Source: Bacteroidales bacterium | GTDB lineage: Bacteria; Bacteroidota; Bacteroidia; Bacteroidales; CAIWKO01 | NCBI GenBank assembly: GCA_035389045.1 | Contig: DAOORA010000019.1 | Coordinates: 48,898 to 68,897, forward strand | DNA: 20,000 nucleotides | Direction of reading: 5' to 3' | Part shown: in pieces, positions 1-15,311 of the stretch | Layout: each line of letters opens with the position of its first letter | Numbering within the stretch: position 1 is the first letter of the stretch | Program-made: the position numbers and the translations under genes | The notes under the pieces: model-generated | Told to the model about the DNA's origin: nothing | What the model saw: the letters and a program-made list of their open reading frames with translations, nothing else | Database searches by the model: none

Positions 1-850
1 TGACCATAAAATTACCGGTATTAACGAAGTTCATATGGTCGAGGAAGGCGACATTACCTTTGTCGATTTTTATAAGTATTATGATAAGGCATTAAACTCA
101 AAAGCCTCTACCGTCATAATAAATAAAAAGGTAACACCACCGGATGGCAAAGCGCTAATAATTTCTGAGGATCCTTTCCGGGACTTCAACAAAATCGCCA
201 CCCGTTTCCGGAAGTTTGAACCCTGTGCGAATCCTATCAGCGATTCGGCGGAAATAGGGGAAGGCACAATTTTGCAGCCAGGCGTGTTTATCGGGAACCA
301 TGTTAAAATTGGTAAAAACTGCATTATTCATTCCAACGTCAGCATTTACGATTATTCCGTTATTGGCGACAATGTCATCATCCAGTCGAATGCGGTTATC
401 GGAGGAGATGCCTATTATTTCAAACGTCGCCCCGATCATTACGATAAAATGGAATCATGCGGAAGGACCATCATACATGACGACGTAGAGATAGGCGCTC
501 TGTGTGCTGTGGACAAGGGTGTATCCGGAGATACTATCGTTGGCCAGGGCACAAAGATCGACAACCATGTTCAGATCGGACATGATACACATATTGGTAA
601 AAATTGTCTCATTGGTGCACATTCAGCCATAGCAGGAGTTACTGTCATTGAAGATGATGTTTGTATATGGGCACAGGTTATGATAAATAAAGACATAACA
701 ATTGGTAAAGGAGCTGTGCTTCTTGCAACGTCCGCCGTAGACAAATCTATGGAAGGCGGTAAGGTTTATTTTGGATCCCCGGCCATTGAAGCACGAAAAA
801 AATGGCGTGAGATAATAGCTTTGAAAAAATTAGCTGAAAATTATAAGTGA
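1..850 (+). CDS. lpxD: UDP-3-O-acyl-glucosamine N-acyltransferase family protein (LpxD-like, hexapeptide repeats), 5'-truncated by the window edge
   Basis: The frame is open from position 2 (DHKITGINEVH) into the ATG at 35, so the true start lies upstream of the window. It has an LpxD-type N-terminal segment (GINEVHMVEEGDITFVD), many [LIV]G-x4 hexapeptide repeats, and the KIDNHVQIGHD motif typical of LpxD. It may be a second LpxD paralogue. Confidence 0.85.
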   Translation, partial: DHKITGINEVHMVEEGDITFVDFYKYYDKALNSKASTVIINKKVTPPDGKALIISEDPFRDFNKIATRFRKFEPCANPISDSAEIGEGTILQPGVFIGNHVKIGKNCIIHSNVSIYDYSVIGDNVIIQSNAVIGGDAYYFKRRPDHYDKMESCGRTIIHDDVEIGALCAVDKGVSGDTIVGQGTKIDNHVQIGHDTHIGKNCLIGAHSAIAGVTVIEDDVCIWAQVMINKDITIGKGAVLLATSAVDKSMEGGKVYFGSPAIEARKKWREIIALKKLAENYK

Positions 851-907
851 TTTTCAGCAAAAACTACCGTTTATTTTTCGTATTGTCGTTCAGAAACATT
901 GTAAAGC

Positions 908-1288
908 ATGGGGGATAAAACATTTGATAAATATTCCAATATCCGCATAAATTACAAATTGTGGATGTCTTCTCAAACCGGTGATGCTATCATTGACGAT
1001 GATAAATGGAAAATGCTCATTTCTATACAGGAACTTGGTTCACTGATGGCAGCTGCCAATAATGAAAAGATAAGTTACCGCAAAGCCTGGGGTGATATTC
1101 GTAAAATGGAAGCTATACTTGGGTTCCGGCTGGTCGAAAAACACCGCGGGGGCAAGTCTGGTGGTATTACCATACTTACAAATGAGGGCGTCAGGCTTAT
1201 TAACTCGTATGTGAGATTTCGCGCTGAATTTCAGCAAAATGTTGATGAAACCATAAAAAAATTTAAAAAAGAGCTGAAACAAGTTTAG
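908..1288 (+). CDS. ModE-family winged helix-turn-helix transcriptional regulator (DNA-binding domain only, no TOBE/Mop domain)
   Basis: The pattern GSLMAAA...ISYRKAW..I..ME..LG..LVEKHRGGKSGG.T.LT..G matches the ModE N-terminal wHTH. At 126 aa it ends in a helix, with no room for molybdate-binding domains. Confidence 0.85.
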   Translation: MGDKTFDKYSNIRINYKLWMSSQTGDAIIDDDKWKMLISIQELGSLMAAANNEKISYRKAWGDIRKMEAILGFRLVEKHRGGKSGGITILTNEGVRLINSYVRFRAEFQQNVDETIKKFKKELKQV

Positions 1289-1295
1289 TTTCCCA

Positions 1296-2033
1296 ATGAG
1301 GATTTTTGTGGCCATCGACGATACAGATAATTCCGAAAGCAAGGGTACGGGTTTCAGGGCCAGAGAACTGGCAGTCCTTATTCAAAAAAAAAATCTGGGA
1401 TTGCTTTATGGAGTAACACGCCACCAGCTTTTTGTACATGAGAAGATTCCATATACATCTCATAACAGTTCAGCATGTATAGTTTTGATTGCTGATGAAA
1501 AAAACCTTCGGAGCATTATTGATGTTTCAGCACAATATCTTATTGAAAATGCTGCCGATGGTTCTGATGCCGGATTATGTGTCTGTTCCGAAAAAAATAT
1601 CACGGCGGAACTGATCTCCTATGCAAAAAAAGCCAAAACAGAAGTCTTGACTATGGATACAGCCATAGAATTGGCTCAGAAACATCAGATTTTTCTGGAG
1701 GGTTTTACGGGAACCAGACAGGGCGTTATAGGATCATTAGCGGCGATCGGACTGCATGCGGAAGGCAACGACGGCCGTTTTCTGCAGGTAAGGGGTATGA
1801 GAGAACTTTTTGGTGTACACACGGTTAAATACATCCTTGAATACACCGGCGTGGAAAAAATCATGTCCACAGAAAACAAAATATTGTTTAATTTCGAAAA
1901 AATTTTTCTTACCGAATGGTGGCGGCCTGTGCTTAATAATAAACAGGCAGTACTATATGTTGAAACAAAAAATGCATGTAATTATGAATACAGGGTTATC
2001 TCAAAAGAGCATATCAAAAACATATCCGACTAA
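1296..2033 (+). CDS. Stand-alone TiaS N-terminal-domain-like (DDTD motif) protein, putative ATP-dependent enzyme of unknown substrate
   Basis: The N-terminus MRIFVAIDDTD...GT, the internal IPYTSHNSS and the GVIGSLAAIG segment parallel conserved motifs of archaeal TiaS. At 245 aa it lacks the C-terminal OB-fold and Zn-ribbon. Confidence 0.75.
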   Translation: MRIFVAIDDTDNSESKGTGFRARELAVLIQKKNLGLLYGVTRHQLFVHEKIPYTSHNSSACIVLIADEKNLRSIIDVSAQYLIENAADGSDAGLCVCSEKNITAELISYAKKAKTEVLTMDTAIELAQKHQIFLEGFTGTRQGVIGSLAAIGLHAEGNDGRFLQVRGMRELFGVHTVKYILEYTGVEKIMSTENKILFNFEKIFLTEWWRPVLNNKQAVLYVETKNACNYEYRVISKEHIKNISD

Positions 2034-2550
2034 GGCTTTATTAACCTTACTTGAGGTGTTGCTCCTGATAAGTATAGGAGCCATCGGGGTTCTGATTCAC
2101 GCTAAATTCCGTTTTCCACTGAGATTGCCCGGGCACTGGGGATTGGTTTACATGGCGTTGATTTTTTCCGGGCGTTTGTTTTCAAAAAAACCTTATGCAT
2201 CAAGCCTGTCAAGCCTGGGCGCTGTTGCTATGTTATTACTGCCCCTTGGATTTAAAGACCCTTTTATGCCTGTCCTGTATATCTTTCCGGGGTTTATTAC
2301 GGACGTTTTCTATAATATCTTTAAAAACGGAAAAAAACAGATAATTCTTATTGCCCTTATTTCCGGAGTGGCTTATATGTCTATACCTTTGTCGCGTTTA
2401 TTTTTAACTTTGTTTACAGGAGTCATATATGGATCTTTCAGTACCGGATATATTTATCCTTTCATTATGCATTTTTTGTTCGGTGCATGTGGCGGCCTGA
2501 CCGGTCTTGGGATATACTCCGTCATTAGGAAAATTCTTAAACGATTATAA
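1984..2550 (+). CDS. Integral membrane protein with about 6 TM helices, ECF transporter S-component-like
   Basis: There are six hydrophobic segments in about 188 aa, and an LPGHWG loop after TM1. The ORF track starts at 1810, but that extension overlaps the upstream gene by more than 200 nt. The in-frame ATG at 1984 (MNTGLSQ) is the more plausible start, though uncertain. Confidence 0.6.
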   Translation: MNTGLSQKSISKTYPTKALLTLLEVLLLISIGAIGVLIHAKFRFPLRLPGHWGLVYMALIFSGRLFSKKPYASSLSSLGAVAMLLLPLGFKDPFMPVLYIFPGFITDVFYNIFKNGKKQIILIALISGVAYMSIPLSRLFLTLFTGVIYGSFSTGYIYPFIMHFLFGACGGLTGLGIYSVIRKILKRL

Positions 2551-2553
2551 TTA

Positions 2554-3444
2554 ATGATAAACCAATCGTTTTTTTTCAAATTAGAGATACTCGTTTTCAT
2601 TGTTGTTTTTTTCTCTTCATGTACCAAAAAAGATACAGACCCGCCTGTTATTACATTTGATGCTTCTGGCGGGCTGGTTTTCAAAGACACGGTATTTCCG
2701 GCCGGAACAAACTTCAAGGTGAGCCTTATTGCCGAAATGGGAGGGTCAAACATTACCAATTTTGTCATCAAAAATTATCACGACGGACAGGTCACCGATT
2801 ATTTTGATACAGGCGTGAATAGCGAAACTATTAATATTACAAAGATACTGACCAAAAATGTTTTTGATACAGAAAAGTGGACTTTTATGGTCATCGATAA
2901 AAATGGTAAAAATGCGTCTGTTTCATTTAATGTATATCGGGATACAAGCGCTGGATATCAATTGGTGAAAGTTTTTCCGGGCGTGATTCTTGGTGCACAG
3001 AAAAACCCTGCAAAAGGAAGCTTTATGAGCCTGAAAAGTGGCAACACATGGTTTCAGCCTGATGCATTCAACATCCAGGATTCAATAGAATTGCTGTATT
3101 ATTTTGACTCAACCGGCGATGCCAATACTATTGCTTCTGCCGGTGCTAACATTGCCACGTTTATTTACCCTGGAAGTACAAGCCCTTTATACTGGTCAAT
3201 CCGGCATGAAACCCGCTTTTATAAGACTGCATATTCAAATGTTGATTTTAATAATGTACAAAACGACAGCCTGTTGCTTGTTGCTTATGATGAAATCAAT
3301 GGTAAGCGTAAGGCCAAAAATCTTGCCGCCGGCGATGTGTATTCATTTAAGACAGCTCATGCACGGTACGGTATGTTTTTAGTGGAACAGGTTCTTGGCG
3401 CCGACTCCGGAATGGTGCAATTCACCATAAAAATCCAGAAATGA
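2554..3444 (+). CDS. Lipoprotein of unknown function, probably surface-exposed partner of the TonB-dependent receptor
   Basis: The signal peptide ends in FFSS-C (Cys23), followed by TKKDTD (Lys then acidic residues, resembling the Bacteroidota lipoprotein export signal). The body looks beta-rich, and its stop overlaps the receptor start (ATGA). Confidence 0.75.
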   Translation: MINQSFFFKLEILVFIVVFFSSCTKKDTDPPVITFDASGGLVFKDTVFPAGTNFKVSLIAEMGGSNITNFVIKNYHDGQVTDYFDTGVNSETINITKILTKNVFDTEKWTFMVIDKNGKNASVSFNVYRDTSAGYQLVKVFPGVILGAQKNPAKGSFMSLKSGNTWFQPDAFNIQDSIELLYYFDSTGDANTIASAGANIATFIYPGSTSPLYWSIRHETRFYKTAYSNVDFNNVQNDSLLLVAYDEINGKRKAKNLAAGDVYSFKTAHARYGMFLVEQVLGADSGMVQFTIKIQK

Positions 3445-5738
3445 TGAAAAAAATTATTGTTTTTAGCATCATTGTGTTGTGGATTATTCAGGTATCTGCC
3501 CAGGGTAAAATAAGCGGTCTTGTAATGGATGAACAGACCGGAAATATACTCCCGGTTGCTACCGTAAAAATCCTTGAGTTAAATATGGTGACTACCTCAG
3601 ATAAAGAAGGCGCTTATGTATTTAAATATATCCAACCAGGGAAATATCATCTCGCCTTCACCTATGTGGGCTATAAAAACGATACCGTTCAGGTCACCAT
3701 GGGGAAAAAAAGTGACCGATATATTATTACAAAACTTACTAAGGCGGTTATCGATATCTCTGAGGTGACTGTCATTGCATCAAGAACCGAAAAAGGGTTC
3801 CGGGTTCCTGCAAGTATGGATGTGATCACCAAAAAACAGTTGCAGGAGTTGCCTGTTGTTTCTGTGGACGATGCATTAGTTTTAGTTTCCGGATTGAATG
3901 CTTCAAGAAATTATGGGATTTATAATAAAACAGGTGATGTAACCTTGCGCGGGCTTAACCGCAACATTTACAGCCTGATACTGCTCGATGGCGTGCCTTA
4001 CAGCCTTTTCGACGGCAGCGCCAACCTGTGGAATAAACTGTATACCGAAAAAATTGATGACATCCAAATCGTAAAAGGGGCAAATTCGGCCTTGTATGGT
4101 AGCAATGCCATGTCAGGTGTAATTTGCATAAATACATACAAACCCGAAAAATCATTTGAAGCCAGGGCTAAGGTTTTTTTCGGGACTTATAATACGCAGG
4201 GCGGGAATCTTGTTGTTGGTGGCAACAGATCCAAAAATGACAGAGGGTTTTACTGGAGTGTCAATGGTTTTTACAGGAAAAGCGGAGGCTATATTATGGC
4301 GCCTGATTCGCTCAGAACACCTTATGATGTGAAAACCTACGTGATGGAATACAACGCATTGGCAAAAACCGGTTATCAGTTTGGTAAAGGTCATAACATC
4401 GAAGTTGAATATGAGTACTCATCCGATAAACGCGGTACCGGTAGTAAATTTTTCGAAGAACAGGGAAGTTATAACCATTACAGAACTCACTTTACCAGAT
4501 TATCATACAATCGTGTGCATGACAACCACGAGATTCATGCCAATGTTTTTTTTAAAAAGGAAGGGTATATAAAACAAAATGAATCCATCAAGAAAAACAC
4601 CGGATTGTACACATTTTACAATACGGACACCGATACACATGACGAAGGGCTTTGGTTCAGTTATACCACCAGGACAATAAAAAATAATGTGCTTACTGTT
4701 GGAACAGATGTTAAAAGCGGTGCTGTTTATTCAAATGATATTTATCATACTTCTGTTGATACCATTGAAAATAATGGGAAAATGGATTTTTTCGGCGTTT
4801 TTATTCAGGACCAGTTATCCCTGCTGAAAGACAAATTTGTGATTTTGGCCGCACTGCGTGCCGATCTGGTACACTTCTACGGAGGGATTTTCCATATATA
4901 TTCACCAACGCTTGCTACATCTTTTTTGTATGATTACCAGGGAGATTTTAAAGCAAAATCGTGGTTTGCATTGAGTCCGAAAGCAGGGTTTAAATATATT
5001 TTTAACGAAAACTTTAATATCTATGCGTTGTATTCCTGGGGTTTCAGGCCGCCACAGATCAACGACCTTTCGCGAACCGGAGATGTAAACAAAGGTTTCA
5101 AACTTGCCAATCCCGGCCTGAAACCTGAACGTATTCAGAGTGTGGAACTGGGTGCAGGATTACGTCCCGCAAAATGGTTGCTGATTCAGCCCATAGTGTT
5201 TTATTCAAAAGGTATAGATTTTCAGTATTTTGTTGCAACTGGCGATTCGGTATATACTTCGGGGGTGAATATGAAACCTGTCATAAAAAGACAAAATGTC
5301 GGAAGAGTTAATATCGCAGGATTTGAACTTAAAACCAGTATCAGTTTTACAAAAAACATGAAACTAACAACTTGTTATTCCTATAATTATTCGGTTATCG
5401 GAAAATACCTGCCGGGCACGGTTGTTACAACCGATCTCACGGGCAGGGACCTGATCGAAGTTCCCAGAAACCTTTTCAGTGGCATTTATACCTGGAATAA
5501 CAGAATTATAACGGCAACTCTTACAGCTAAGTTCATTGATAAAGAATGGGTCGACGATGAAAATACTATCAGACTTGACTCGTATTGGACTTTCGATGCC
5601 AGGATACAGCGTATGTTTTATAACAAAATTAATTTTGCGCTGACCTGTCAGAATATTTTAAACAAACGCTTTGTGGACAGCAAGGGCTACCTTTCGCCAG
5701 GAAGATACTTTTTGTTTGAATTGTCTTTCAACTGGTAA
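3441..5738 (+). CDS. TonB-dependent outer-membrane receptor with N-terminal CarboxypepD_reg-like domain
   Basis: It has a signal peptide, an N-terminal ISGLVMDEQTG...FTYVGY extension, a TonB-box-like EVTVIASR and plug motifs (LRGL, LILLDGVP, IQIVKGANSALYGSNAMSGVI). It also has NPGLKPE and a C-terminal NILNKRF...PGRYF...SFNW aromatic-ended strand. Confidence 0.95.
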   Translation: MMKKIIVFSIIVLWIIQVSAQGKISGLVMDEQTGNILPVATVKILELNMVTTSDKEGAYVFKYIQPGKYHLAFTYVGYKNDTVQVTMGKKSDRYIITKLTKAVIDISEVTVIASRTEKGFRVPASMDVITKKQLQELPVVSVDDALVLVSGLNASRNYGIYNKTGDVTLRGLNRNIYSLILLDGVPYSLFDGSANLWNKLYTEKIDDIQIVKGANSALYGSNAMSGVICINTYKPEKSFEARAKVFFGTYNTQGGNLVVGGNRSKNDRGFYWSVNGFYRKSGGYIMAPDSLRTPYDVKTYVMEYNALAKTGYQFGKGHNIEVEYEYSSDKRGTGSKFFEEQGSYNHYRTHFTRLSYNRVHDNHEIHANVFFKKEGYIKQNESIKKNTGLYTFYNTDTDTHDEGLWFSYTTRTIKNNVLTVGTDVKSGAVYSNDIYHTSVDTIENNGKMDFFGVFIQDQLSLLKDKFVILAALRADLVHFYGGIFHIYSPTLATSFLYDYQGDFKAKSWFALSPKAGFKYIFNENFNIYALYSWGFRPPQINDLSRTGDVNKGFKLANPGLKPERIQSVELGAGLRPAKWLLIQPIVFYSKGIDFQYFVATGDSVYTSGVNMKPVIKRQNVGRVNIAGFELKTSISFTKNMKLTTCYSYNYSVIGKYLPGTVVTTDLTGRDLIEVPRNLFSGIYTWNNRIITATLTAKFIDKEWVDDENTIRLDSYWTFDARIQRMFYNKINFALTCQNILNKRFVDSKGYLSPGRYFLFELSFNW

Positions 5739-5833
5739 GGAGTACATTCCAATCAATCATTTTTCAAATTCTTATATTTATTTTTCCTTATATTAATTAA
5801 TGAGTTTTTATATGAAAATTGTCTATTTTTTAT

Positions 5834-5841
5834 TAATTTTG
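5834..5841 (+). promoter_or_regulatory. Putative Bacteroidota housekeeping-sigma -7 element (TAATTTTG) upstream of lpdA
   Basis: Exact match to TAnnTTTG, 25 nt before the lpdA ATG in an AT-rich intergenic region. Confidence 0.55.
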
Positions 5842-5866
5842 CACTACAAATAACAAGAAGTAGTAT

Positions 5867-7258
5867 ATGAATTTCGATATTATTATAATAGGTTCAGGAC
5901 CGGGTGGTTATGTGGCTGGCATAAGAGCGTCGCAATTAGGTTTTTCCGTTGCTATGGTTGAACAGGCCGAGGTAGGCGGTATATGTCTAAATTGGGGCTG
6001 CATTCCTACCAAAGCGCTTCTGAAATCTGCCCAGGTTTATAATTATGCAAAACATGCCGCTGAATATGGAATTACGCTTACAGGCGATGTTGCTTTTGAT
6101 TTTCAGACTATCGTCAGACGCAGCCGTGATGTTGCGGAAAATATGAGCAAGGGTGTTCAGTTTTTGTTCAGAAAAAATAAAATCGAAGTAATTAAAGGCC
6201 ATGGAAAGATTTTGCCGGGCGGAAAAGTGGAAGTTACCGGCGGTGAAGGCCAAATATCGGTTTATGAGGCAAGACATATTATTCTTGCTACAGGATCACG
6301 TGCACGGGAACTTCCCAATCTGAAAATCGACGGCAAAAAAATTATTGGATACCGCCAGGCAATGACCTTGGAAAAACAACCACAATCATTGGTGGTAATA
6401 GGTTCCGGGGCTATCGGTTCGGAGTTTGCACACTTTTATAATACACTTGGCACCAAAGTGACACTGGTAGAGATGTTGCCCAATGTAGTTCCTGTCGAAG
6501 ATGAGGATGTGTCAAAACAACTGGAACGTTCTTTCAAAAAAAGCGGAATGAAAGTTTATACTGCTTCTGTCGTTGAAAGTGTTGATACCAGTGGCGAAAT
6601 TTGTAAGGTTTCGATAAAAACCCCAAAAAATGTTGAGGTGGTCGAAGCGGAAGTTGTTCTTTCTGCTGTTGGCGTAAGCACCAACCTTGAAAATTTAGGA
6701 TTGGAAGAAACCGGCATACTGACCGAAAGAGGAAAAGTCCTGGTGGATGAGTACTACCGGACCAACCAGGAAGGGTATTATGCCATCGGCGATATTGTAA
6801 AGGGGCCTGCCCTGGCTCATGTGGCTTCGCGCGAAGGTATTGTCTGTGTTGAAAAAATTGCCGGGAAAGACGTGGCGCCTGTGGATTATAGTAATATTCC
6901 GGGCTGTACATATACACATCCGGAGGTTGCCTCAGTGGGATATACCGAAAAAGCAGCCATCGAAGCAGGGTTGACCATAAAAACCGGAAAGTTCCCTTTT
7001 ACTGCCAGTGGAAAAGCCAATTCTTCGGGGTTCAGGGACGGTTTTATCAAAGTGATTTTTGATGCTGATTCCGGCAAATGGCTCGGAGCTCATTTTATCG
7101 GCGAGAATGTTACCGAAATGATAGCCGAAGTAGTAGTGGCGCGTAATATAGGCGCTACGGCTCACGATATTCTCACGGCAGTGCATCCGCACCCCACCAT
7201 GTCCGAAGCCGTTATGGAAGCCGTGGCAGCGGCATACGGTGAGGTGATTCATATATAA
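5867..7258 (+). CDS. lpdA: Dihydrolipoyl dehydrogenase (E3)
   Basis: It has the FAD-binding GSGPGGY, the redox-active GGICLNWGCIPTK, the NAD-binding GSGAIG and the C-terminal HPHPTMSE. Confidence 0.97.
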   Translation: MNFDIIIIGSGPGGYVAGIRASQLGFSVAMVEQAEVGGICLNWGCIPTKALLKSAQVYNYAKHAAEYGITLTGDVAFDFQTIVRRSRDVAENMSKGVQFLFRKNKIEVIKGHGKILPGGKVEVTGGEGQISVYEARHIILATGSRARELPNLKIDGKKIIGYRQAMTLEKQPQSLVVIGSGAIGSEFAHFYNTLGTKVTLVEMLPNVVPVEDEDVSKQLERSFKKSGMKVYTASVVESVDTSGEICKVSIKTPKNVEVVEAEVVLSAVGVSTNLENLGLEETGILTERGKVLVDEYYRTNQEGYYAIGDIVKGPALAHVASREGIVCVEKIAGKDVAPVDYSNIPGCTYTHPEVASVGYTEKAAIEAGLTIKTGKFPFTASGKANSSGFRDGFIKVIFDADSGKWLGAHFIGENVTEMIAEVVVARNIGATAHDILTAVHPHPTMSEAVMEAVAAAYGEVIHI

Positions 7259-7270
7259 TGGTAAACTGAA

Positions 7271-9163
7271 ATGTGCGGTATCTCAGGCATAATAGCTTTC
7301 AGCGAAACAGGAAGAAATTATCTGCAAAACATTCATGCTGCTGTTGCTGCTATGAAAACAAGGGGGCCTGATAATAATGGAGTTTATATCAACGGTAATG
7401 TAGCTTTCGGCCATAACAGACTTTCCGTTATTGATGTTTCCGATGCTGCATCACAACCCTTTACGGATGAATCAGGAAGATATACCATCGTTTTTAACGG
7501 AGAGTTTTTTAATTTCAAATCCCATCGTGATCAGCTCATTTCCCGGGGAATACAACTGAAGTCAACCAGCGATACGGAAGTGCTGTTGTATTTATATATG
7601 CTTGAAGGGACTGCCTGTCTTCAAAAAATAAACGGGTTCTTTGCCTTGGCTATTCATGATAAGCATGAAGATACTGTTTTTATTGCTCGCGACCGCATGG
7701 GCGTCAAACCTTTGTTAATATATAAAGATCGGGACAAACTGTGCTTTGCTTCCGAAATGAAAGCCCTGTTTGCAATGCAGATACCTAAGCAACTAGACAG
7801 GGTGTCATTGCATGCTTATATGCAAATGAATTACATACCCGCCAATTTCACAATGATTAGCCATGTCGTAAAACTGGAACCGGGAAATTATCTGATGGTG
7901 AGGAAAAATTCAGCGGAACAGAAACAATATTATGCGATGCCTTATTCTCCTGGCCAGACAGATGCAAAGGCCGATTATGATACCTCCTGTAAGCGTGTGA
8001 AACAGCTGTTACTTGAATCCGTTGAAAAAAGAATGATTTCGGATGTTCCTCTTGGCGCTTTTCTCAGCGGAGGTGTCGACTCTTCTGTAATAGTGGCTCT
8101 TGCATCGCAATTCACAAAACAGTTAAACACATTTTCTATCGGGTTCAGGGATGAACCTTTTTTTGATGAAACCCGTTATGCACAAATTGTTGCAAATAAA
8201 TTTAACACCAGCCATACTGTTTTTTCTCTTACCCAGGATGATCTTTTGGCTGTTTTGTTTGATGTGCTTGATTATGTTGACGATCCTTTCGCTGATTCTT
8301 CAGCTATTGCAGTTTATTTGCTGAGCAGGGAAACCCGGAAGTTTGTTACTGTGGCCTTATCGGGAGATGGAGCCGATGAACTTTTCGGAGGATATCTGAA
8401 ACATACAGGTGAATATAAGATCAGGATGGCAGGACCACCGGAAAAACTTCTGAAATACTGTTTGCCATTGATTAACAGGCTTCCGCAGTCGCGAAATTCT
8501 GCTTTTTCCAATAAAGTACGGCAGATTGCAAAATATGCCAACGGACTGAAACTCTCAGATCGGGAACGTTACTGGCGGTGGTGTTCTTTTATTTCCGAAG
8601 AAGATGCCGGGCACATCATTTTAAAAAAGATCGACATTGACGAATATCTGGAACGTAAGAATACTATTTTAAAAAATATTACCTGTAAGGGAAGTATGAA
8701 TGATGTTTTGTTTGCCGATATGAAACATGTGCTGGTAAATGATATGCTGACCAAAGTTGATCTGATGTCAATGGCCAGTTCACTCGAAGTCAGAACACCC
8801 TTCCTTGATGTTGAACTTGTAAATTATGTTTTTTCACTGCCTGATTCATTCAAAGTTCAGGGAAACCTCAGGAAACGTATTTTACAGGATGCTTTTAAAG
8901 ACGATTTGCCGGCTGAAATATTTCACAGGGCGAAACATGGTTTTGAAGTTCCCTTATTAAAATGGTTCAGGAATGAGTTGTTTTCCATGATAAATGACGA
9001 CCTGCTTCACGATGACTTTATTGCCGGACAGGGCATATTCAGTGTTGCTGAAACAAAAAAACTCAAAACTCGTTTACAGTCTAATAATCCAGGCGATGTT
9101 CATGCTCAGATATGGGGATTATTGGTTTTTCAATATTGGTGGAAAAAGTATTTTGCAAATTAA
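7271..9163 (+). CDS. asnB: Asparagine synthase (glutamine-hydrolysing) family amidotransferase
   Basis: It begins MCGI (Ntn cysteine) and contains RGPD, GHNRLSVID, FNGE, SDTEV, LSGGVDSS, LSGDGADELFGGY and EVRTPFLD. Confidence 0.93.
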   Translation: MCGISGIIAFSETGRNYLQNIHAAVAAMKTRGPDNNGVYINGNVAFGHNRLSVIDVSDAASQPFTDESGRYTIVFNGEFFNFKSHRDQLISRGIQLKSTSDTEVLLYLYMLEGTACLQKINGFFALAIHDKHEDTVFIARDRMGVKPLLIYKDRDKLCFASEMKALFAMQIPKQLDRVSLHAYMQMNYIPANFTMISHVVKLEPGNYLMVRKNSAEQKQYYAMPYSPGQTDAKADYDTSCKRVKQLLLESVEKRMISDVPLGAFLSGGVDSSVIVALASQFTKQLNTFSIGFRDEPFFDETRYAQIVANKFNTSHTVFSLTQDDLLAVLFDVLDYVDDPFADSSAIAVYLLSRETRKFVTVALSGDGADELFGGYLKHTGEYKIRMAGPPEKLLKYCLPLINRLPQSRNSAFSNKVRQIAKYANGLKLSDRERYWRWCSFISEEDAGHIILKKIDIDEYLERKNTILKNITCKGSMNDVLFADMKHVLVNDMLTKVDLMSMASSLEVRTPFLDVELVNYVFSLPDSFKVQGNLRKRILQDAFKDDLPAEIFHRAKHGFEVPLLKWFRNELFSMINDDLLHDDFIAGQGIFSVAETKKLKTRLQSNNPGDVHAQIWGLLVFQYWWKKYFAN

Positions 9164-9172
9164 ACTGATGTT

Positions 9173-10357
9173 ATGCCTAGAGTATTAAGGATCATCAACC
9201 GTTTTAACCTCGGCGGGCCGACATACAACGCTGCCTATCTTACACGATATATGTCGCCTGAATTTCAGACCTTGCTGGTTGGTGGCATGAAAGACGAAAC
9301 GGAAGAAAACTCTGAATTTATTGTCCGTAATCTTGGAATTGTTCCTGTGATTATTCCTGAAATGCGCCGCTCCATAAACCCGGTTCAGGATGCTGTTGCA
9401 TTAAAAAGATTAATTTCTATCATTGGGGATTTCAGGCCTGATATTGTACATACTCATGCTTCTAAGGCCGGAGCTTTGGGTCGCAGGGCGGCACACAGGA
9501 TGAACGTTCCGGTGATTATTCATACTTTTCACGGCCATGTTTTTGATGCTTACTTCAGTGGCATTAAATCCCATATCTACCAGCATATTGAGAGAGTGCT
9601 TGCTAAAAAATCAACAAAGATCATTGCTCTGAGCGAAATTCAAAAATTTGATCTTGTGCATAAATATAAGATTTGCCCCGAAGAAAAAGTAAGGGTGATA
9701 CCGCTCGGATTTGACTTAAGTCGTTTCAGGGATAGTATGGACGAAAAAAGAATAAAGTTTCGTAAAGATCATTTGCTTGATGATGATGAAATAGCTGTCG
9801 GAATTATCGGGCGTATAGTCCCGATAAAAAATCACACCCTTTTTCTGGAAGGAATTAAATATATCACAGAGCAATCAGGAAAAAAGATCAGGGCATTCAT
9901 TGTGGGCGACGGCGAAGATAAAAATAAGGTGCGGGAAAAATGTCATGCCCTCGGCCTGAGTTGTGTTGATTTTACTGCTGAGAAAAGAAAAGCTGCCGTA
10001 ACCTTTACTTCCTGGATAAAAGATGTTGATTGTGTCAATGCAGGATTGGACATCGTTTCTCTTACCTCATTAAATGAAGGTACTCCCGTGAGCCTTATCG
10101 AAGCCCAGGCATCTGGAAAACCAATAATAACTACAAATGTAGGGGGTATTGAGAATATTGTGATCCCGGGGCAGACGGCATTACTGTCGGATATTGGCAT
10201 TGCAGATTATCGGAATAAGTTAATGAAACTTGTTTTGGACGAAACCATGAGGAGAAATTTCGGTAATGCCGGATGGAATTTTGTTAATCAAAAATTTTCA
10301 TATTTGCGTTTGGTCAATGATATGAAAAAATTATATTATGAATTATTGGCTATGTAA
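9173..10357 (+). CDS. Glycosyltransferase family 4 (GT-B fold)
   Basis: It contains PDIVHTHASKAG, HTFHGH, GRIVPIKNH and the S..EG.P..L.EA motif (SLNEGTPVSLIEAQASGKP). Confidence 0.92.
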   Translation: MPRVLRIINRFNLGGPTYNAAYLTRYMSPEFQTLLVGGMKDETEENSEFIVRNLGIVPVIIPEMRRSINPVQDAVALKRLISIIGDFRPDIVHTHASKAGALGRRAAHRMNVPVIIHTFHGHVFDAYFSGIKSHIYQHIERVLAKKSTKIIALSEIQKFDLVHKYKICPEEKVRVIPLGFDLSRFRDSMDEKRIKFRKDHLLDDDEIAVGIIGRIVPIKNHTLFLEGIKYITEQSGKKIRAFIVGDGEDKNKVREKCHALGLSCVDFTAEKRKAAVTFTSWIKDVDCVNAGLDIVSLTSLNEGTPVSLIEAQASGKPIITTNVGGIENIVIPGQTALLSDIGIADYRNKLMKLVLDETMRRNFGNAGWNFVNQKFSYLRLVNDMKKLYYELLAM

Positions 10358-10375
10358 CTTACGGGTGGAAATTAT

Positions 10376-10383
10376 TAAATTTG
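10376..10383 (+). promoter_or_regulatory. Putative -7 promoter element (TAAATTTG) upstream of wza
   Basis: Matches TAnnTTTG in the 39-nt gap between the GT4 gene and wza. Confidence 0.45.
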
Positions 10384-10396
10384 TAAAAAATTTAAA

Positions 10397-11137
10397 ATGA
10401 AACGCTTAATATATTTATTGGTTCTGGTAATATTTGTTTCGGGGTGCAGGGTTTTTACTCCTTATCAGATGCTGCGGCAGGGAGATTATCCTGTTTCAGA
10501 ATTCCCCGACTCCTTAAAAACCCGGGAGTATATCATTGCCCCCAATGATGAGCTTCAGATAAATCTCTTCACCAAAAATGGGGAACAGATCATTGACCCG
10601 CTGCGTTCAACGAGTGCCAGCAGTGGCGCCGATATAAAATATACCGTTGAATTTGACGGGCAGATAAAACTGCCGATCCTTAACAGAAAACAAATAGCCG
10701 GGAATACTATCCGTGAAGCGGAAAAATTGCTGGAAGACTTATATACCCCTTATTTCAACGAACCTTTTGTGCAGATTAAAGTTACCAATAACCGGGTTAC
10801 CATCTTTCCCGGCGGGCAGGGCAGTCAGGCAACGGTACTCACGCTGGATAATTCTAATACTACTCTTTTTGAAGCCCTGGCCAAAGCTGGCGGAATTACA
10901 GATGGCAAAGCCCATAAAATCAAACTTATTAGAGGAGACCTGAAAAATCCTCAGGTTTATTTTATTGATCTCTCTACTATCGAAGGAATGACAAAGGCCA
11001 ATCTTATATTACAGGCCAACGATATTATTTATGTTCAGCCACGCAACAAAATACCTCAGAAGATATTGGAAAATGTTGCTCCGTATTTGTCTTTGTTTGC
11101 AACCTTTTTAACAATTTATGCACTTTTCGTAAAATAA
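10397..11137 (+). CDS. wza: Polysaccharide export lipoprotein (Wza/OPX family)
   Basis: It has the lipobox VSG-C, a Poly_export motif (YIIAPNDELQI...DGQIKLP) and an SLBB segment (TLFEALAKAGG, LQANDIIYV). It is adjacent to wzc. Confidence 0.88.
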   Translation: MKRLIYLLVLVIFVSGCRVFTPYQMLRQGDYPVSEFPDSLKTREYIIAPNDELQINLFTKNGEQIIDPLRSTSASSGADIKYTVEFDGQIKLPILNRKQIAGNTIREAEKLLEDLYTPYFNEPFVQIKVTNNRVTIFPGGQGSQATVLTLDNSNTTLFEALAKAGGITDGKAHKIKLIRGDLKNPQVYFIDLSTIEGMTKANLILQANDIIYVQPRNKIPQKILENVAPYLSLFATFLTIYALFVK

Positions 11138-11141
11138 AACA

Positions 11142-13640
11142 ATGGATAGAAAGAAAAAAATATCTCTGATAAATGATGAGATTGATTTAAAATTATTCTT
11201 TTATATTTTTAAAAAAAACTTTTATTATCCTTTGATTTTTGTGTTACTTGCCCTGATAGGTGCATTCCTGTATATACGATATACCCTCCCGGTTTACGAA
11301 TCAAAAAGCATTATTCAGATTGATAGAAATGAAGAAGCACGTAGTCTGTTTGCCAATCCTTTGATGCAAACGGATGAAGATAACTTCCTGACAAAAAAGA
11401 TGGAAATTATCAAATCCTACACTTTTATTCAACGGATTGCTAATAAACTACCGCTTGCTGTTTCTTATTTCAGCAAAGGAACAGTACTTGATTATGAACA
11501 TTATAGAAATTCTCCTTTTAATGTTAGTATCAAAGTGAAGAATTCTGCTATATATGGTGTTCCGATAAATGTAAGTTTTTCCGACAACTCAAAAATTGCT
11601 ATCTCCTACAAGCTGGATGGGTTACCTGAACAACAAAAGCTAATCAACATAAATGAGCAGGCTGTTTTGCCGGATTTCGACATTACTTTCGTTTCTGTCA
11701 ATTATAAACGTATCAAAGAAAAAGAGGATTTTCTCGCTGGAGATAAATATTTTTTTGTAGTCAACAACCCTCAGAGTATTGTTCCCGGAATAATATCAAA
11801 ACTCCAGGTAAATATTCTCAATCAGGCTGCAAATACCATTCTTATTCAGTACAATGATAATTGTGCAGAGAAGGCAACCGACATAGTCAACACCATTGCC
11901 GAAGAATTTCAGAGCTACGACATCGAAAAACAGGCACAGAGCGCTGATAAAATGTTGAAGTATATTGATGACAGGATGGGAATCATTTATGATACTCTTG
12001 TAAAATCACAGAGTGATATTATAGGCTTCATGAGGGCCAACAATATTGATTCATCCGACAATAAACCCTTGCCATCCCTGACTTCTAGACTCAATGATTA
12101 TCAAAACCAGATCGTGACTCTTGAACTGGAATCCAACAAGTTGCAGGAAATAGAAAATAATATCAAAGCCTCCGATAAATCTGATCTTACCCGGCTGATC
12201 GTGCTGACAGCTGGCAGTGAATTCAAAGGTTCCATATCCGGTATGCTCAACACCCTTCAGGATCTGATTATCAGCCGTGAAAAATTATTGTATAACCTTA
12301 CCGAAAACAGCGGACAAATAAAAGAACTGGATTATCAGATCGGCGTGCAGAAAAAACTTATTATTGAAAGTATTAAATATCTGAATGATAATATTACTGA
12401 TCGCAAGAAAGAAATAACTGAAAAAATTGATTTGTATGAAAATATGTTGCAGGTAAAAGACCAAAACTATAATTCAGTGGATTTGGCAAGCCTGCAGAGG
12501 ATTTATTCCATTAATGAACGATACTATACTCAGTTGGTTGATAAAAAAGCAGAGTATTCCCTGGCTAAAGCAGGTTATGTGTCGCAGAATACCATCTTAC
12601 AACGGTCGGCGGTTGCTACTGAACCAATTTCTCCCCAAAAAAACAATGTATACTTATTCTCAGTATTGGTTTCTTTGTTATTGGGTTTAATAATCATTAT
12701 TGCAAAGTATGTTGTGTTTGATAATATATTAAATCTTAATGATATTGTTAAACATACAGATATTCCGATTATCGGGCTGGTTCCCAAGTATGAATTAAAA
12801 ATCCCTGTTTCTCAACTCATTGTTGATGACCATCCCAGATCCATTGTTGCTGAAGCATTACGTTCCATTCGAACCAATCTGCAGTTTCTGAACAATGAAC
12901 CGGGCTCAAAAATTGTCGCTCTTTCATCTACGGTTTCCGGCGAGGGAAAAACATTTGTGGCTATTAATCTTGCCGGTGTTATTGCTTTTTCTAACAAGAA
13001 AGTGCTGGTGATAGACATGGATTTGCGAAAGCCTAAAATCCATATAGGCTTTGGTGTGGGTAACAACAAGGGAATGAGTACGATCCTCTCAAAAAAAACC
13101 GATATAAATAATTGTATCAACCATAGTTCTGTTGAAAACCTCGATTTTATCACTGCCGGACCGGTTCCTCCCAATCCTTCCGAATTGATATTCAGCCAGG
13201 AAACAGATACTATCCTGGCCTTTCTTAAGACGAAATATGATTTCATTATTATTGATACTCCGCCGGTCGGCATGGTCACCGACGGAATTAAAGCAATGTC
13301 CGTTGCGGATTATCCCCTTTATATTATCAAGGCAAATTATTCAAAAAGGTATTATATTCTCGATCTTGAACGCATGGTGGAAGACAGCAAACTGAAACAT
13401 ATATCAATAATTTTAAATGCTGCTATACCGTTGAGCATGGCATACCGGTACGGAAAAAAATATCATGGGATCAACAAAAGTTTCAGTTACGGCTATGGCT
13501 ATGGATATGGTTATGGTTACGGTTATGGATATAACATTGATGAAGAGGATGATGGATCCGGTGATAGAAAAAACGGTCAAAAAGTTAAGAGGTCTTTTAT
13601 TGGTAAAATTCTTGGTTTTTTTAGATTAAACAGTAAATAA
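11142..13640 (+). CDS. wzc: Polysaccharide co-polymerase / BY tyrosine autokinase (Wzc family)
   Basis: Two TM segments flank a large periplasmic domain. The kinase part has EALRSIRTNL, Walker A SGEGKT, A' DMDLRKP, Walker B IIIDTPP and a C-terminal Tyr cluster. Confidence 0.93.
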   Translation: MDRKKKISLINDEIDLKLFFYIFKKNFYYPLIFVLLALIGAFLYIRYTLPVYESKSIIQIDRNEEARSLFANPLMQTDEDNFLTKKMEIIKSYTFIQRIANKLPLAVSYFSKGTVLDYEHYRNSPFNVSIKVKNSAIYGVPINVSFSDNSKIAISYKLDGLPEQQKLININEQAVLPDFDITFVSVNYKRIKEKEDFLAGDKYFFVVNNPQSIVPGIISKLQVNILNQAANTILIQYNDNCAEKATDIVNTIAEEFQSYDIEKQAQSADKMLKYIDDRMGIIYDTLVKSQSDIIGFMRANNIDSSDNKPLPSLTSRLNDYQNQIVTLELESNKLQEIENNIKASDKSDLTRLIVLTAGSEFKGSISGMLNTLQDLIISREKLLYNLTENSGQIKELDYQIGVQKKLIIESIKYLNDNITDRKKEITEKIDLYENMLQVKDQNYNSVDLASLQRIYSINERYYTQLVDKKAEYSLAKAGYVSQNTILQRSAVATEPISPQKNNVYLFSVLVSLLLGLIIIIAKYVVFDNILNLNDIVKHTDIPIIGLVPKYELKIPVSQLIVDDHPRSIVAEALRSIRTNLQFLNNEPGSKIVALSSTVSGEGKTFVAINLAGVIAFSNKKVLVIDMDLRKPKIHIGFGVGNNKGMSTILSKKTDINNCINHSSVENLDFITAGPVPPNPSELIFSQETDTILAFLKTKYDFIIIDTPPVGMVTDGIKAMSVADYPLYIIKANYSKRYYILDLERMVEDSKLKHISIILNAAIPLSMAYRYGKKYHGINKSFSYGYGYGYGYGYGYGYNIDEEDDGSGDRKNGQKVKRSFIGKILGFFRLNSK
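13488..13532 (+). repeat. Degenerate 6-bp tandem repeat (TAYGGN)7+TAT encoding the (YG)7Y tyrosine cluster of Wzc
   Basis: The sequence reads tac ggc tat ggc tat gga tat ggt tat ggt tac ggt tat gga tat. Confidence 0.9.
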
Positions 13641-14191
13641 TGAAAAAAATACCGACAGCAATACCTGATGTTTTCGTTATAGAACCCGATGTTTTTGAAG
13701 ATAACAGAGGCTATTTTTTTGAAACCTATAATCAGCAGAAATATGCTGAACTTGGACTAAATGATAAATTTGTACAGGATAATGAATCGTTGTCTGCAAA
13801 AAATGTACTTCGCGGACTGCATTTTCAGAAACCACCCTACGAGCAGGGTAAACTGGTAAGGGTGATTAGGGGAGGCGTTCTTGATGTTGCGGTGGATATA
13901 CGGAAAAATTCTCCGTTTTTTGGTAAATGGGTTTCACAGGAACTTACTGAGCAAAATAAATTGCTGATGTGGATACCACCGGGTTTTGCTCATGGCTTCG
14001 TCACGCTTTTTGATTGCACTGTTTTTTCTTATAAATGTACCGGCTTTTATAACCATGCTTCGGAACAGGTTCTGCTCTGGAACGATACAGATATTGGTGT
14101 CAACTGGATGATTAATAACCCTGTCTTGTCTGAACGGGATAAATCAGGAATGCCTTTGAATAAATTTTGTACTCCATTCATTTACAAGTAA
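13640..14191 (+). CDS. rfbC: dTDP-4-dehydrorhamnose 3,5-epimerase
   Basis: It contains DNRGYFFE, FVQDNES, VLRGLHFQ, DVAVDIR and PPGFAHGF. Its start overlaps the wzc stop (TAATG). Confidence 0.95.
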   Translation: MKKIPTAIPDVFVIEPDVFEDNRGYFFETYNQQKYAELGLNDKFVQDNESLSAKNVLRGLHFQKPPYEQGKLVRVIRGGVLDVAVDIRKNSPFFGKWVSQELTEQNKLLMWIPPGFAHGFVTLFDCTVFSYKCTGFYNHASEQVLLWNDTDIGVNWMINNPVLSERDKSGMPLNKFCTPFIYK

Positions 14192-14200
14192 ATTATTTAG

Positions 14201-14208
14201 TACTTTTG
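14201..14208 (+). promoter_or_regulatory. Putative -7 promoter element (TACTTTTG) upstream of the WecA/MraY-like gene
   Basis: Matches TAnnTTTG in the 36-nt intergenic gap, 19 nt before the GTG start. Confidence 0.55.
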
Positions 14209-14227
14209 CGGGCTAAAATTTTTTAAT

Positions 14228-15310
14228 GTGGAAAAAGAAGAAATATATTCATTGATAGCCTATTTTTCTTTTTTTATTGTTTCGTTTTTTTTTGCTATCC
14301 TTATCAACCGCATATTGGTTACTTTTTCCAGAAATTTAGGGGCAAGAAGCGATGCCGATAATCAGATCCGGTGGAATACCAGAGCAAAGCCTTCTTTCGG
14401 AGGCATGTCTTTTTATATTATTTTTTTACTTTCAGTAACGGCACTGGCTTTTTTTTTCCAGGAAAACAGTTTGTTCCATAACTATAAATTGCTTGGAATA
14501 ATAAGCGCCACCACGCTGGGATTTGTGATGGGGCTATTTGACGATGCATATAATACAAGGGTATATATTAAACTAATTTCCCAGATTTTATGTGGTGTCA
14601 TTTTAATTTATACAGATACATATATTTCTTTATTTGAAAATGACTACCTGAATTATGTTTTCACTGTTCTTTGGGTAGTTGGTATCATGAATTCAATTAA
14701 TATGCTGGACAATATGGATGCAATTTCGACCCTGGTAGCCATCTTTATTTTTTCAGGCATTTTTATTGAAAATATGCTTTCCGGTGGCCTCGGAAATAAT
14801 ATTAATATTATTATTATCGGCATTTATTCTGCTCTGGTAGGTTTCTTATTTTTTAACTGGCCGCCATCAAAAATGTACATGGGCGACACCGGAAGTCAGT
14901 TTTTAGGAGTTCTTCTGGCTGCGTTCGGCATTGTTTTTATTTGGAATTATAAGGAAAGTGACCTTAATGAAATACCAACCAAACAAGTATGTGCGGTTAT
15001 TCTTTTCTTTGCTTTGCCAATCATTGATACAACTACCGTTTCCATAAAACGGATTCTCAGAGGCAAATCACCGTTCATCGGCGGTAAGGATCATACCACA
15101 CATCATTTATCTTATCTGGGTCTGACCGAAAAGCAGGTTGCAGTTGTATATGCCGTGCTTTCAGGGATTTCAATGATTCTTGGACTTGTATGCCTCAATA
15201 TAAAAGCCTGGAATCATTATTATACTATGGGTTTTGCAGCATATTTTCTTATCTTGTTTTCAGTCCTTTTTTATATAGCTAATATTAATAAGGAGAGAAG
15301 TCTGGACTGA
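14228..15310 (+). CDS. Undecaprenyl-phosphate alpha-N-acetylglucosaminyl 1-phosphate transferase (WecA/TagO, MraY superfamily)
   Basis: A polytopic membrane protein with P.FGG, GLFDD, NSINMLDNMD, FNWPPSKMYMGDTGS and DHTTHHL motifs. It has a GTG start. Confidence 0.9.
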   Translation: MEKEEIYSLIAYFSFFIVSFFFAILINRILVTFSRNLGARSDADNQIRWNTRAKPSFGGMSFYIIFLLSVTALAFFFQENSLFHNYKLLGIISATTLGFVMGLFDDAYNTRVYIKLISQILCGVILIYTDTYISLFENDYLNYVFTVLWVVGIMNSINMLDNMDAISTLVAIFIFSGIFIENMLSGGLGNNINIIIIGIYSALVGFLFFNWPPSKMYMGDTGSQFLGVLLAAFGIVFIWNYKESDLNEIPTKQVCAVILFFALPIIDTTTVSIKRILRGKSPFIGGKDHTTHHLSYLGLTEKQVAVVYAVLSGISMILGLVCLNIKAWNHYYTMGFAAYFLILFSVLFYIANINKERSLD

Positions 15311-15311
15311 T

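Follow-up and report, generated by a model that had tools for sequence, protein, structure and literature searches.

A stand-alone bacterial TiaS-like kinase domain in a gene cassette linked to tungsten and molybdenum

To our knowledge, a function is known for a single protein with the fold of the Thr18-Cyt34 kinase domain (TCKD): TiaS, the tRNA(Ile2) 2-agmatinylcytidine synthetase, which is regarded as an archaeal speciality of tRNA modification. TiaS phosphorylates an organic substrate, transferring the phosphoryl group to an oxygen nucleophile; it reportedly cleaves ATP to AMP and pyrophosphate, with transfer of the γ-phosphate and autophosphorylation of Thr18. The A. fulgidus enzyme (PDB entries 3AMT, 3AMU, 4RVZ and 5XOB) has ∼420 residues and includes ferredoxin-like, OB and Zn-ribbon domains. 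Two other TCKD proteins are close: a stand-alone P. furiosus protein of 252 residues, which is a structural-genomics entry named ‘tRNA modifier TiaS’ (PDB entry 3U02), and methanogenesis marker protein 11 (TIGR03280), a hypothetical equivalog of archaeal origin. Here, we describe a bacterial protein of this fold encoded by the open reading frame (ORF) at 1296..2033 in a 20,000-nucleotide stretch (the window; positions 48,898 to 68,897 of contig DAOORA010000019.1, assembly GCA_035389045.1) from a Bacteroidales bacterium. It is a genuine TCKD homologue but no TiaS. The original prediction, made from the sequence alone, had recognized the kinase domain; it had not noticed that the context of the cassette points to tungsten/molybdenum acquisition specifically. 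The protein probably performs an undescribed ATP-dependent step in the handling of these metals and not a tRNA modification. In the reading that we prefer, and to which we give roughly an even chance, it is the cytoplasmic nucleotide-using component of an undescribed cassette for the acquisition of tungsten and/or molybdenum and acts on imported tungstate or molybdate.

The described tungsten and molybdenum systems (ModABC, WtpABC, TupABC, ModE and the Azotobacter molybdenum storage protein MoSto; PDB entry 2OGX) share neighbourhoods and, in relatives of the host, a regulon with the TCKD gene, but TCKD proteins, TonB-dependent receptors and ECF S-component-like carriers are absent from all of them. 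MoSto requires ATP for depositing the oxyanion. Solitary ECF S components such as BtuM and BioY resemble the carrier of the cassette in fold and in that no EcfT was found in the host genome, and in kinase-coupled facilitators such as PnuC–NadR there is a parallel to the kinase-like cytoplasmic gene that overlaps the carrier gene here. Kinases trap vitamins that are imported through S components or PnuC; no precedent is known among such pairs for tungsten or molybdenum, the putative substrate class here, or for this type of kinase.

The TCKD protein and its relation to TiaS

The protein begins MRIFVAIDDTDNSESKGTGF, and has IPYTSHNSS at residues 51–59 and GVIGSLAAIG at residues 143–152; all of the motifs quoted in the original prediction are present at their coordinates in the translated ORF. 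A phmmer search of PDB sequences matched the A. fulgidus TiaS chains 3amt, 4rvz and 3au7 (E values of 6.5e-9 to 7.4e-9), with residues 1–157 pairing with residues 1–155 of TiaS. The first 21 residues align without gaps, so that D8, D9, D11 and T18 pair with the same-numbered residues of TiaS. The two proteins are 27% identical over 154 residues and have in common the N-terminal I-D-D-T-D strand, Thr18, the IPY..T..N loop and the GxIGALAA helix. A family profile built from 67 relatives matched TiaS with an E value of 1.4e-14 and the P. furiosus protein 3u02 with an E value of 4.4e-15 (residues 1–152). In the profile alignment Y53-T54..N57 pairs with the Y-K-T-R-G-N loop of both, T54 and N57 falling on the T and N of KTRGN, so the change from KTRGN to TSHN proposed from the sequence is real. 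Entry 3u02 is similar in size to the window protein but only ∼21–24% identical to it, and retains the TiaS-type KTRGN loop.

Pfam TiaS_TCKD (PF22641) matched the protein with 26.3 bits (E value of 8.3e-6; gathering threshold 27) and matched 37 of the 67 family members at E ≤ 0.01; the only other Pfam match at E ≤ 1 was PH_BEACH, at chance level. In NCBIfam the best match was methanogenesis marker protein 11 (E value of 3.4e-14; residues 2–156 against model positions 134–285 of 292), followed by TiaS (1.9e-11). Both are far under their cut-offs: 52.6 against 255.8 bits for the marker protein, which has an extra N-terminal region of ∼130 residues, and 43.2 against 600 bits for the TiaS equivalog NF040849, of which model positions 1–157 of 422 are covered.

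The comparison of an AlphaFold model with TiaS by Foldseek, which had been suggested as a check, was run and showed a TiaS-like fold. The AlphaFold2 model, calculated on the alignment of the 67 relatives, has a mean pLDDT of 96.5 and a pTM of 0.92. Foldseek superposed it on TiaS with an E value of 3.3e-11 and a root-mean-square deviation (r.m.s.d.) of 2.4 over 156 columns; the top five matches were all TiaS entries (four at 3.3e-11 to 9.5e-11 and the ZRD-deleted mutant 3au7 at 9.6e-7), and 3u02 came next. According to VIA-align, run against 48,161 chains, the model is most similar to 3amt_A (Z score of 23.1, r.m.s.d. of 1.7 Å, 154 residues aligned) and then to 3u02_A (Z score of 15.9, r.m.s.d. 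of 2.9 over 144 residues), with every other chain at 7.8 or below. The TCKD assignment of the ORF is secure. The fold spans residues 1 to ∼157; residues ∼160–245 form a small, confidently modelled β-rich domain for which the Atlas structure neighbours are unnamed actinobacterial clusters only (TM score of 0.76–0.79 by query).

Conservation was assessed in 39 proteins, translated from the loci that had been fetched in Bacteroidales (21, including the window) and in Desulfobacterota (18). D8, D9, T10, D11, G17, G19, R42, Q44, T54, S55, N57, G160 and R161 are present in all 39 and T18 in 38, with one Ser; the 67-sequence family alignment agrees. The Mg/ATP-type acidic strand and Thr18 are strongly selected. 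These counts support the description of the protein as a stand-alone TiaS-like kinase domain that retains the acidic motif and Thr18. T18 lies within a nearly invariant G-T-G, as might be expected of a protein kinase that autophosphorylates Thr18 in the manner of TiaS and then phosphorylates the S component, a MoSto-like protein or MoeA. We consider such a kinase very unlikely: we found no partner that carries a conserved acceptor site, and the partners vary between phyla.

Several features separate the protein from TiaS. All sequence and profile alignments with TiaS stop at residues 153–157, and the remainder is a different C-terminal domain of ∼85 residues. The 245-residue protein has no Pfam match to OB, ferredoxin-like or Zn-ribbon families at E ≤ 1, and its four Cys residues (61, 95, 97 and 228) make no CxxC pairs; as far as these tests reach, the earlier statement that the OB and Zn-ribbon domains are missing is borne out. 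The family has invariant residues of its own (R42-H/Q43-Q44, T54-S55-x-N57-S58 and G160-R161). It is also bacterial, lies in a tungsten/molybdenum transport context, and its host carries TilS (188.2 bits; cut-off 93.6), in agreement with the view of TilS as the bacterial enzyme.

The family is large. A word-indexed search of clusters at 90% identity returned 2,937 proteins at E ≤ 1e-3, of which almost every one has 240–250 residues, and an exhaustive search of representatives at 50% identity returned 839 at E ≤ 1e-3 and 131 at E ≤ 1e-30. A search for longer members gave one protein of 1,053 residues with HTH_1, plug and barrel domains, whose length probably stems from gene calling that fused parts of the same operon; relatives of intermediate length (287–428 residues) showed no additional Pfam domain. 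Most members are unnamed or ‘hypothetical’ and come from metagenome-assembled genomes of Bacteroidales or other Bacteroidota. The gene is single-copy in the host genome and was found in 1 of 301 genomes of a phylum-wide Bacteroidota sample (the host itself), in 33 of 201 genomes of an order-wide sample and in 22 of 301 genomes of the phylum of the Desulfamplus locus. Among the members P0026, P0105, P0053 and P0064, NCBI calls two ‘ABC transporter substrate-binding protein’, and JGI calls P0053 and P0064 ‘tRNA(Ile2) C34 agmatinyltransferase TiaS’; neither public name fits the evidence on the family.

The JGI name corresponds to the possibility that the protein is still an RNA-modifying enzyme, which would carry out a bacterial agmatidine-type or other tRNA cytidine modification with an RNA-binding partner, and the only characterized homologue is indeed a tRNA enzyme. 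Its probability appears minimal to us: TiaS homology ends near residue 157 with no OB or Zn-ribbon domain detected, TilS is present, the transport and metal context recurs in two phyla with no RNA-related partner, and a distribution this patchy and nested in tungsten users fits no decoding function.

The Bacteroidales cassette

In the window the TCKD gene is the second of five genes that lie head to tail between 908 and 5738, all on the plus strand (Table 1). Twenty Bacteroidales loci were fetched from the 33 TCKD-positive genomes of the order. The membrane-protein gene is present in 19, in each case adjoining the TCKD gene, the lipoprotein and receptor genes in 18 each and a ModE_N gene in 11; L059 is truncated where its contig stops, while L044 is truly without lipoprotein and receptor. 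Seven Bacteroidales/Marinilabiliales loci from a named-genome collection, which may partly overlap the set of 20, have the same gene order, with a ModE-type homologue in six. These counts substantiate the earlier suggestion of a link between the TCKD gene and the transport genes beside it.

The membrane-protein gene shares 50 nucleotides with the 3′ end of the TCKD gene. Its start was set at the Met that aligns with the conserved MNG/MNT of the homologues; other in-frame ATGs lie at 1957 and 1972. The protein matched no Pfam family. Its predicted model (pLDDT of 88) has the six-helix S-component fold: against the 48,161 chains, the top 15 VIA matches were all ECF S components (Z scores of 13.7–8.3), with unrelated chains starting at 7.6. 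YkoE came first (5edl_A, 13.7), then ThiT (12.4) and RibU (12.0), followed by PanT, BioY (9.3), BtuM (9.1), FolT (8.3), CbiM and NikM. Foldseek agrees weakly (best match 5edl, E value of 8.2e-3, TMq of 0.61). At position 60, in a P-G-x-x-G motif, all 22 aligned sequences have a basic residue (14 His, five Lys and three Arg). The S-component-like protein appears to be solitary in the host because no CbiQ/EcfT (PF02361) was found in its genome, which is 96.3% complete. With a hidden Markov model of the membrane-protein family, members were found in six Desulfobacterota loci (L101, L089, L086, L091, L008 and L092; E values of 6e-18 to 5e-10). Three of these (L086, L089 and L101) carry CbiQ/EcfT together with a double ABC ATPase, so the Desulfobacterota homologue behaves as a true ECF S component; L008 carries the double ABC ATPase. 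A TonB-dependent receptor is also found in four of the six (L086, L089, L092 and L008). A prediction of the complex between the membrane protein and the TCKD protein gave a score of 0.00 and a mark of 0.32, and carries no weight either way.

The receptor matched the Pfam families TonB_dep_Rec_b-barrel (E value of 3.4e-32), Plug (3.5e-20) and CarbopepD_reg_2 (2.2e-17). Its nearest NCBIfam model is TonB-hemin (170.6 bits, below the cut-off of 316.85) and its nearest PDB entry is PhuR (E value of 2.1e-17). The lipoprotein is probably the surface partner of the receptor. It has no Pfam or NCBIfam family at cut-off (best SH3DP, E value of 0.022, 14.8 against 25 bits; best NCBIfam E value 0.053) and no match among PDB sequences; its family is confined to Bacteroidota, and its Atlas neighbours are unnamed Bacteroidota clusters. 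A gene for a type IX secretion system (T9SS) protein with a Por_Secre_tail domain follows the receptor gene in nine of the 20 loci (∼280 residues in eight and 472 in L051) and could encode a secreted binding protein; it is missing from the window, where lpd comes after the receptor.

The gene of the regulator stops 8 nucleotides upstream of the TCKD gene. The protein matched ModE_repress (TIGR00637) with an E value of 3.7e-22 (78.2 bits; cut-off 98.5), Pfam HTH_1 with 30 bits (cut-off 26.6) and, among PDB sequences, E. coli ModE (1b9m, residues 24–102) with an E value of 2.6e-8. In the whole host genome no TOBE/Mop domain was detected. This gap would be filled if the TCKD protein were a metal sensor or co-regulator, supplying the missing sensing of tungsten or molybdenum (and ATP) for a regulator that consists of the ModE N-terminal domain only, or else gating the transporter. 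The regulator and TCKD genes lie side by side and in the same direction in the window, in six of the seven named-genome loci and in at least L043, L048 and L055, as such a role would predict. Yet ModE_N accompanies the TCKD gene in only 11 of the 20 Bacteroidales loci and clearly in only one of the 18 Desulfobacterota loci (L093), whereas the transport and storage genes are constant, and the near-invariant Mg/ATP-type acidic motif and Thr18 suggest catalysis beyond binding; we therefore hold a sensor to be quite improbable. An Rfam scan of 13 related loci at gathering thresholds for molybdenum-cofactor and other riboswitches gave no matches. A σ70 promoter scan of positions 700–6000 gave 19 hits, which is no excess over the 15.9 expected from shuffles, such promoter and terminator scans being uninformative for Bacteroidota.

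Tungsten and molybdenum in neighbourhoods, genomes and a candidate regulon

Genes for tungsten and molybdenum proteins recur beside the TCKD gene. In Bacteroidales, WtpA occurs above its cut-off of 355 bits in L045 (384.8) and L042 (375.8); L058 has an SBP_bac_11 protein with ModB and ModC-TOBE; MoeA lies near the TCKD gene in L055, L057 and L061, the last of which also has MoaA-like, MoaC and MOSC-MoaB genes; and in L047 a tungsten oxidoreductase (AOR) of 718 residues lies immediately upstream. Among the 18 loci fetched from Desulfobacterota, six have WtpA (444.3 bits against 355) or a TupA-like binding protein and/or ABC-TOBE, three an ECF module (CbiQ with a double ABC ATPase), three a FecCD-type ABC transporter (one with FmdE) and two a molybdopterin oxidoreductase. 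In nine of the 18, and also in L009, a gene of ∼276 residues from the amino-acid-kinase family adjoins the TCKD gene. The one such protein tested is a MosB homologue (2ogx_B, E value of 1e-67; MoSto α, 2e-42). The loci with a single MosB-like gene beside the TCKD gene and tungstate transporters are L093, L094, L096–L100, L102, L103 and L009, an indication that sulfate reducers and organisms related to them have a store of the MoSto type, which may be for tungsten.

The distribution across genomes agrees with the neighbourhoods. AOR is present in all 33 TCKD-positive genomes and in 53 of the 168 other genomes of the order (Fisher p of 9e-15), and MoeA in 32 of 33 against 68 of 168 (2e-10); these p values are overstated, the genomes being related and not independent, but the nesting of TCKD in AOR carriers is still complete. 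The sole TCKD-positive genome without MoeA (G494) has its TCKD match in a contig-end fragment. The host, with two AOR genes, a WtpA-like gene (TIGR03730, 297.4 against 242.75 bits), MoeA, MoaC and MOSC-MoaB, is a tungsten user.

The same observations bear on whether the protein is a kinase for an organic molecule related to tungsten or molybdenum, such as an imported pterin (a breakdown product or precursor of the molybdenum or tungsten cofactor) or a metal–chelator complex, which would be phosphorylated or adenylylated. Such a kinase would suit the vitamin S-component fold of the membrane protein (YkoE to FolT), the phosphorylation of an organic substrate by TiaS and the fact that pairs of receptor and surface lipoprotein usually take bulky ligands, the relatives here being haem and siderophore receptors. 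We regard it as unlikely, since the Desulfobacterota neighbours (WtpA, TupA-like, ModB/C-TOBE and the MoSto homologue) are specific for oxyanions, not pterins, and since the host has its own MoaC, MOSC-MoaB and MoeA, making salvage unnecessary.

A 24 bp palindrome, CGATATG-N10-CATATCG, was found upstream of ModE_N genes and is a candidate for the operator to which the ModE-type regulators bind. In relatives of the host (L003–L006, L011 and L034/L055) it lies 5′ of ModE_N, in the interval that separates the S-component gene from the lipoprotein gene, and 5′ of a Ppnp-family gene of 93 residues. The complete 4.6 Mb genome of one relative (G403) has six sites at one mismatch or fewer and none for the reversed-pattern control: three are inside the cassette, one precedes a second set of lipoprotein and receptor genes, one is ∼175 nucleotides upstream of a match to the N-terminal domain of an AOR of the 720-residue type (the gene start was not mapped) and the sixth is 4.7 kb from another AOR. 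The host genome contains 19 sites at two mismatches or fewer, against four for the control, including sites upstream of an AOR of 721 residues and around wtpA. Membership of the cassette in this putative regulon is seen in relatives only. In L002, the closest named-genome relative (68% identical TCKD protein), another perfect palindrome, AGCTTTGGTTT...AAACCAAAGCT, lies 5′ of ModE_N. The window does not have this palindrome either, and the ModE-type regulators of the subgroup of the window and L002 may recognize another site.

Some further genes were noted around these sites. The second set in G403 has no TCKD gene, lies 4.5 kb from the cassette and has its own palindrome; it consists of lipoprotein paralogues of 188 and 299 residues and a receptor paralogue of 771 residues, which is 34% identical to the window receptor. 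An aldehyde dehydrogenase of 542–543 residues stands beside the cassette in three relatives, and its host orthologue (542 residues, 54% identical) lies 34 nucleotides downstream of the only perfect palindrome of the host. An aldehyde dehydrogenase and AOR in one putative regulon hint that aldehyde oxidation is switched between a tungsten-dependent and a tungsten-independent mode. A Ppnp-family (PF06865) gene is found near the cassette in six of the 20 Bacteroidales loci (93 residues in five and a 115-residue ORF in L045) and is preceded by the palindrome in L003–L006 and L055; its annotated nucleoside phosphorylase role has no obvious fit with a tungsten regulon. The remaining genes of the window, from lpd through the LOG-family gene, are all ordinary.

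Table 1. Positions of the genes of the window and of the palindromes and neighbouring genes discussed in the text (L, loci; G, genomes)
Feature	Sequence	Position	Strand	Details
ModE-type winged-helix regulator	Window	908..1288	+	126 aa; DNA-binding domain only, without the metal-binding Mop/TOBE domain
Stand-alone TiaS-TCKD-like protein	Window	1296..2033	+	ATG start; 245 aa
Small polytopic membrane protein, predicted ECF S-component fold	Window	1984..2550	+	∼188 aa
Predicted lipoprotein	Window	2554..3444	+	296 aa; N-terminus MINQSFFFKLEILVFIVVFFSSC, Cys behind hydrophobic stretch
TonB-dependent outer-membrane receptor	Window	3441..5738	+	765 aa; N-terminal carboxypeptidase-regulatory-like domain, plug, barrel
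lpd	Window	5867-7258		Follows receptor
asnB	Window	7271-9163		
Capsule/exopolysaccharide-type cluster	Window	9173-16319		GT4-type (Glycos_transf_1), Poly_export/SLBB, Wzz-GNVR-tyrosine-kinase-like protein, dTDP-4-dehydrorhamnose epimerase, GT4 (Glycos_transf_4), SLT transglycosylase
uvrA	Window	16335-19208		
LOG-family gene	Window	19246-19950		
Candidate operator palindromes	L003	4967-4988, 5576-5595, 7304-7325		
Candidate operator palindromes	L055	6409-6430, 8141-8160, 8624-8645		
Candidate operator palindromes	Host genome G000	C26:14309-14332, C23:20413-20436, C1:152417-152440		
Other palindrome	L002	5560-5609		
Second lipoprotein/receptor set	G403	C1:2717874-2721835 (L113:1375-5336)		
T9SS protein	L042	8318-9151		
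T9SS protein	L043	8544-9401		
T9SS protein	L046	883-1755		
T9SS protein	L048	2299-3156		
T9SS protein	L049	8522-9367		
T9SS protein	L050	8676-9569		
T9SS protein	L051	930-2348		
T9SS protein	L056	2418-3257		
T9SS protein	L057	8490-9338		
Ppnp-family gene	L045	9111-9458		
Ppnp-family gene	L046	8585-8866		
Ppnp-family gene	L047	3648-3929		
Ppnp-family gene	L054	3313-3594		
Ppnp-family gene	L055	8256-8537		
Ppnp-family gene	L061	2777-3058		
Aldehyde dehydrogenase	L054	795-2426		
Aldehyde dehydrogenase	L055	8691-10319		
Aldehyde dehydrogenase	L058	9557-11188		
Aldehyde dehydrogenase, host orthologue	G000	C26:12647-14275 (L111:1148-2776)	−	

A possible ATP-dependent step in tungsten and molybdenum handling

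We propose the following scheme for the action of the TCKD protein on imported tungstate or molybdate. The TonB-dependent receptor and the lipoprotein would capture a tungsten or molybdenum species at the outer membrane, and the ECF S-component-like protein would move it through the inner membrane. The TCKD protein, which has no signal sequence and starts with the first strand of its core, as a cytoplasmic protein would, may bind Mg-ATP at a site formed by DDTD, GTG, IPYTSHN and GxIGALAA and act on the incoming species. The most likely version would be a nucleotide-dependent capture of the oxyanion, either by phosphoryl or adenylyl transfer to give a mixed anhydride or through an ATP-gated bound state. 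Metabolic trapping of this kind could make uptake through a solitary S component directional, and the metal would then go to MoeA, or to the MoSto-like store in the case of Desulfobacterota. We infer the use of ATP, the substrate and the chemistry from the homology, the fold, the conserved motifs, the synteny, the co-occurrence and the operator shared in relatives.

Several points weigh against this scheme. The Pfam TCKD score falls slightly below its gathering threshold; L010, L044 and, in part, L007 have no tungsten or molybdenum marker among the neighbours scanned; and the window is without CGATATG-N10-CATATCG even at three mismatches or fewer. Among characterized proteins the receptor is closest to those for haem and siderophores, and the classical cargo of ECF S components is vitamins, so that the species carried could be organic. 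In Desulfobacterota, moreover, the TCKD gene stands beside complete ATP-driven transporters (ECF and WtpABC/TupABC).

Two narrower roles were also considered. The idea that the TCKD protein is merely the ATPase of the solitary S component is weakened by the Desulfobacterota loci that carry an ECF ATPase module as well as the TCKD gene. A molybdopterin adenylyltransferase that replaces MogA/MoaB was rejected, as the genome has a MOSC-MoaB fusion (TIGR00177, 112.8 against 85.35 bits). The type of transporter varies (solitary S component, full ECF, WtpABC/TupABC or FecCD-type) and the TCKD protein is constant, which favours an enzyme or chaperone acting on the tungsten or molybdenum species over an energizer of transport.

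The open-access literature that we searched, which includes few subscription journals, contained nothing on stand-alone TCKD proteins, on a link between TiaS-like proteins and tungsten or molybdenum, on methanogenesis marker protein 11 or on TonB-dependent or ECF-type tungsten uptake. In the parts searched of four tungsten-related articles (PMC11980592, PMC13328260, PMC13119186 and PMC13197769), no such protein is named. A known fold thus occurs here in a new architecture and in a functional setting that is both new and specific.

The TCKD protein has a realistic chance of marking a new enzymatic step in tungsten and molybdenum metabolism. More tentatively, and with doubt prevailing, stand-alone TCKD proteins could be a missing class of enzyme that activates or traps the oxyanion with ATP, for example as a phospho- or adenylyl-oxyanion or by passing it to MoeA or MoSto in an ATP-gated manner. 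Together, these proteins, the receptor, the lipoprotein and the S-component-like carrier would be the first route for tungsten uptake that is TonB-dependent and of the ECF type; the archaeal relatives (methanogenesis marker protein 11 and the 3U02 protein of P. furiosus) might serve tungsten and molybdenum enzymes and not tRNA, and TiaS would be the derived member of the fold. If true, a large bacterial TCKD family with intact motifs in tungsten/molybdenum clusters would give the fold a second function, probably on another class of substrate. It would also add to tungsten and molybdenum homeostasis components that we did not find described in the literature searched: a TonB-dependent receptor with its lipoprotein, a carrier that resembles ECF S components and an ATP-using partner in the cytoplasm. 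These touch on how tungsten is acquired and discriminated at trace levels and on what becomes of the oxyanion between the transporter and MoeA, questions relevant to anaerobic carbon cycling and to the tungsten enzymes of gut and sediment bacteria.

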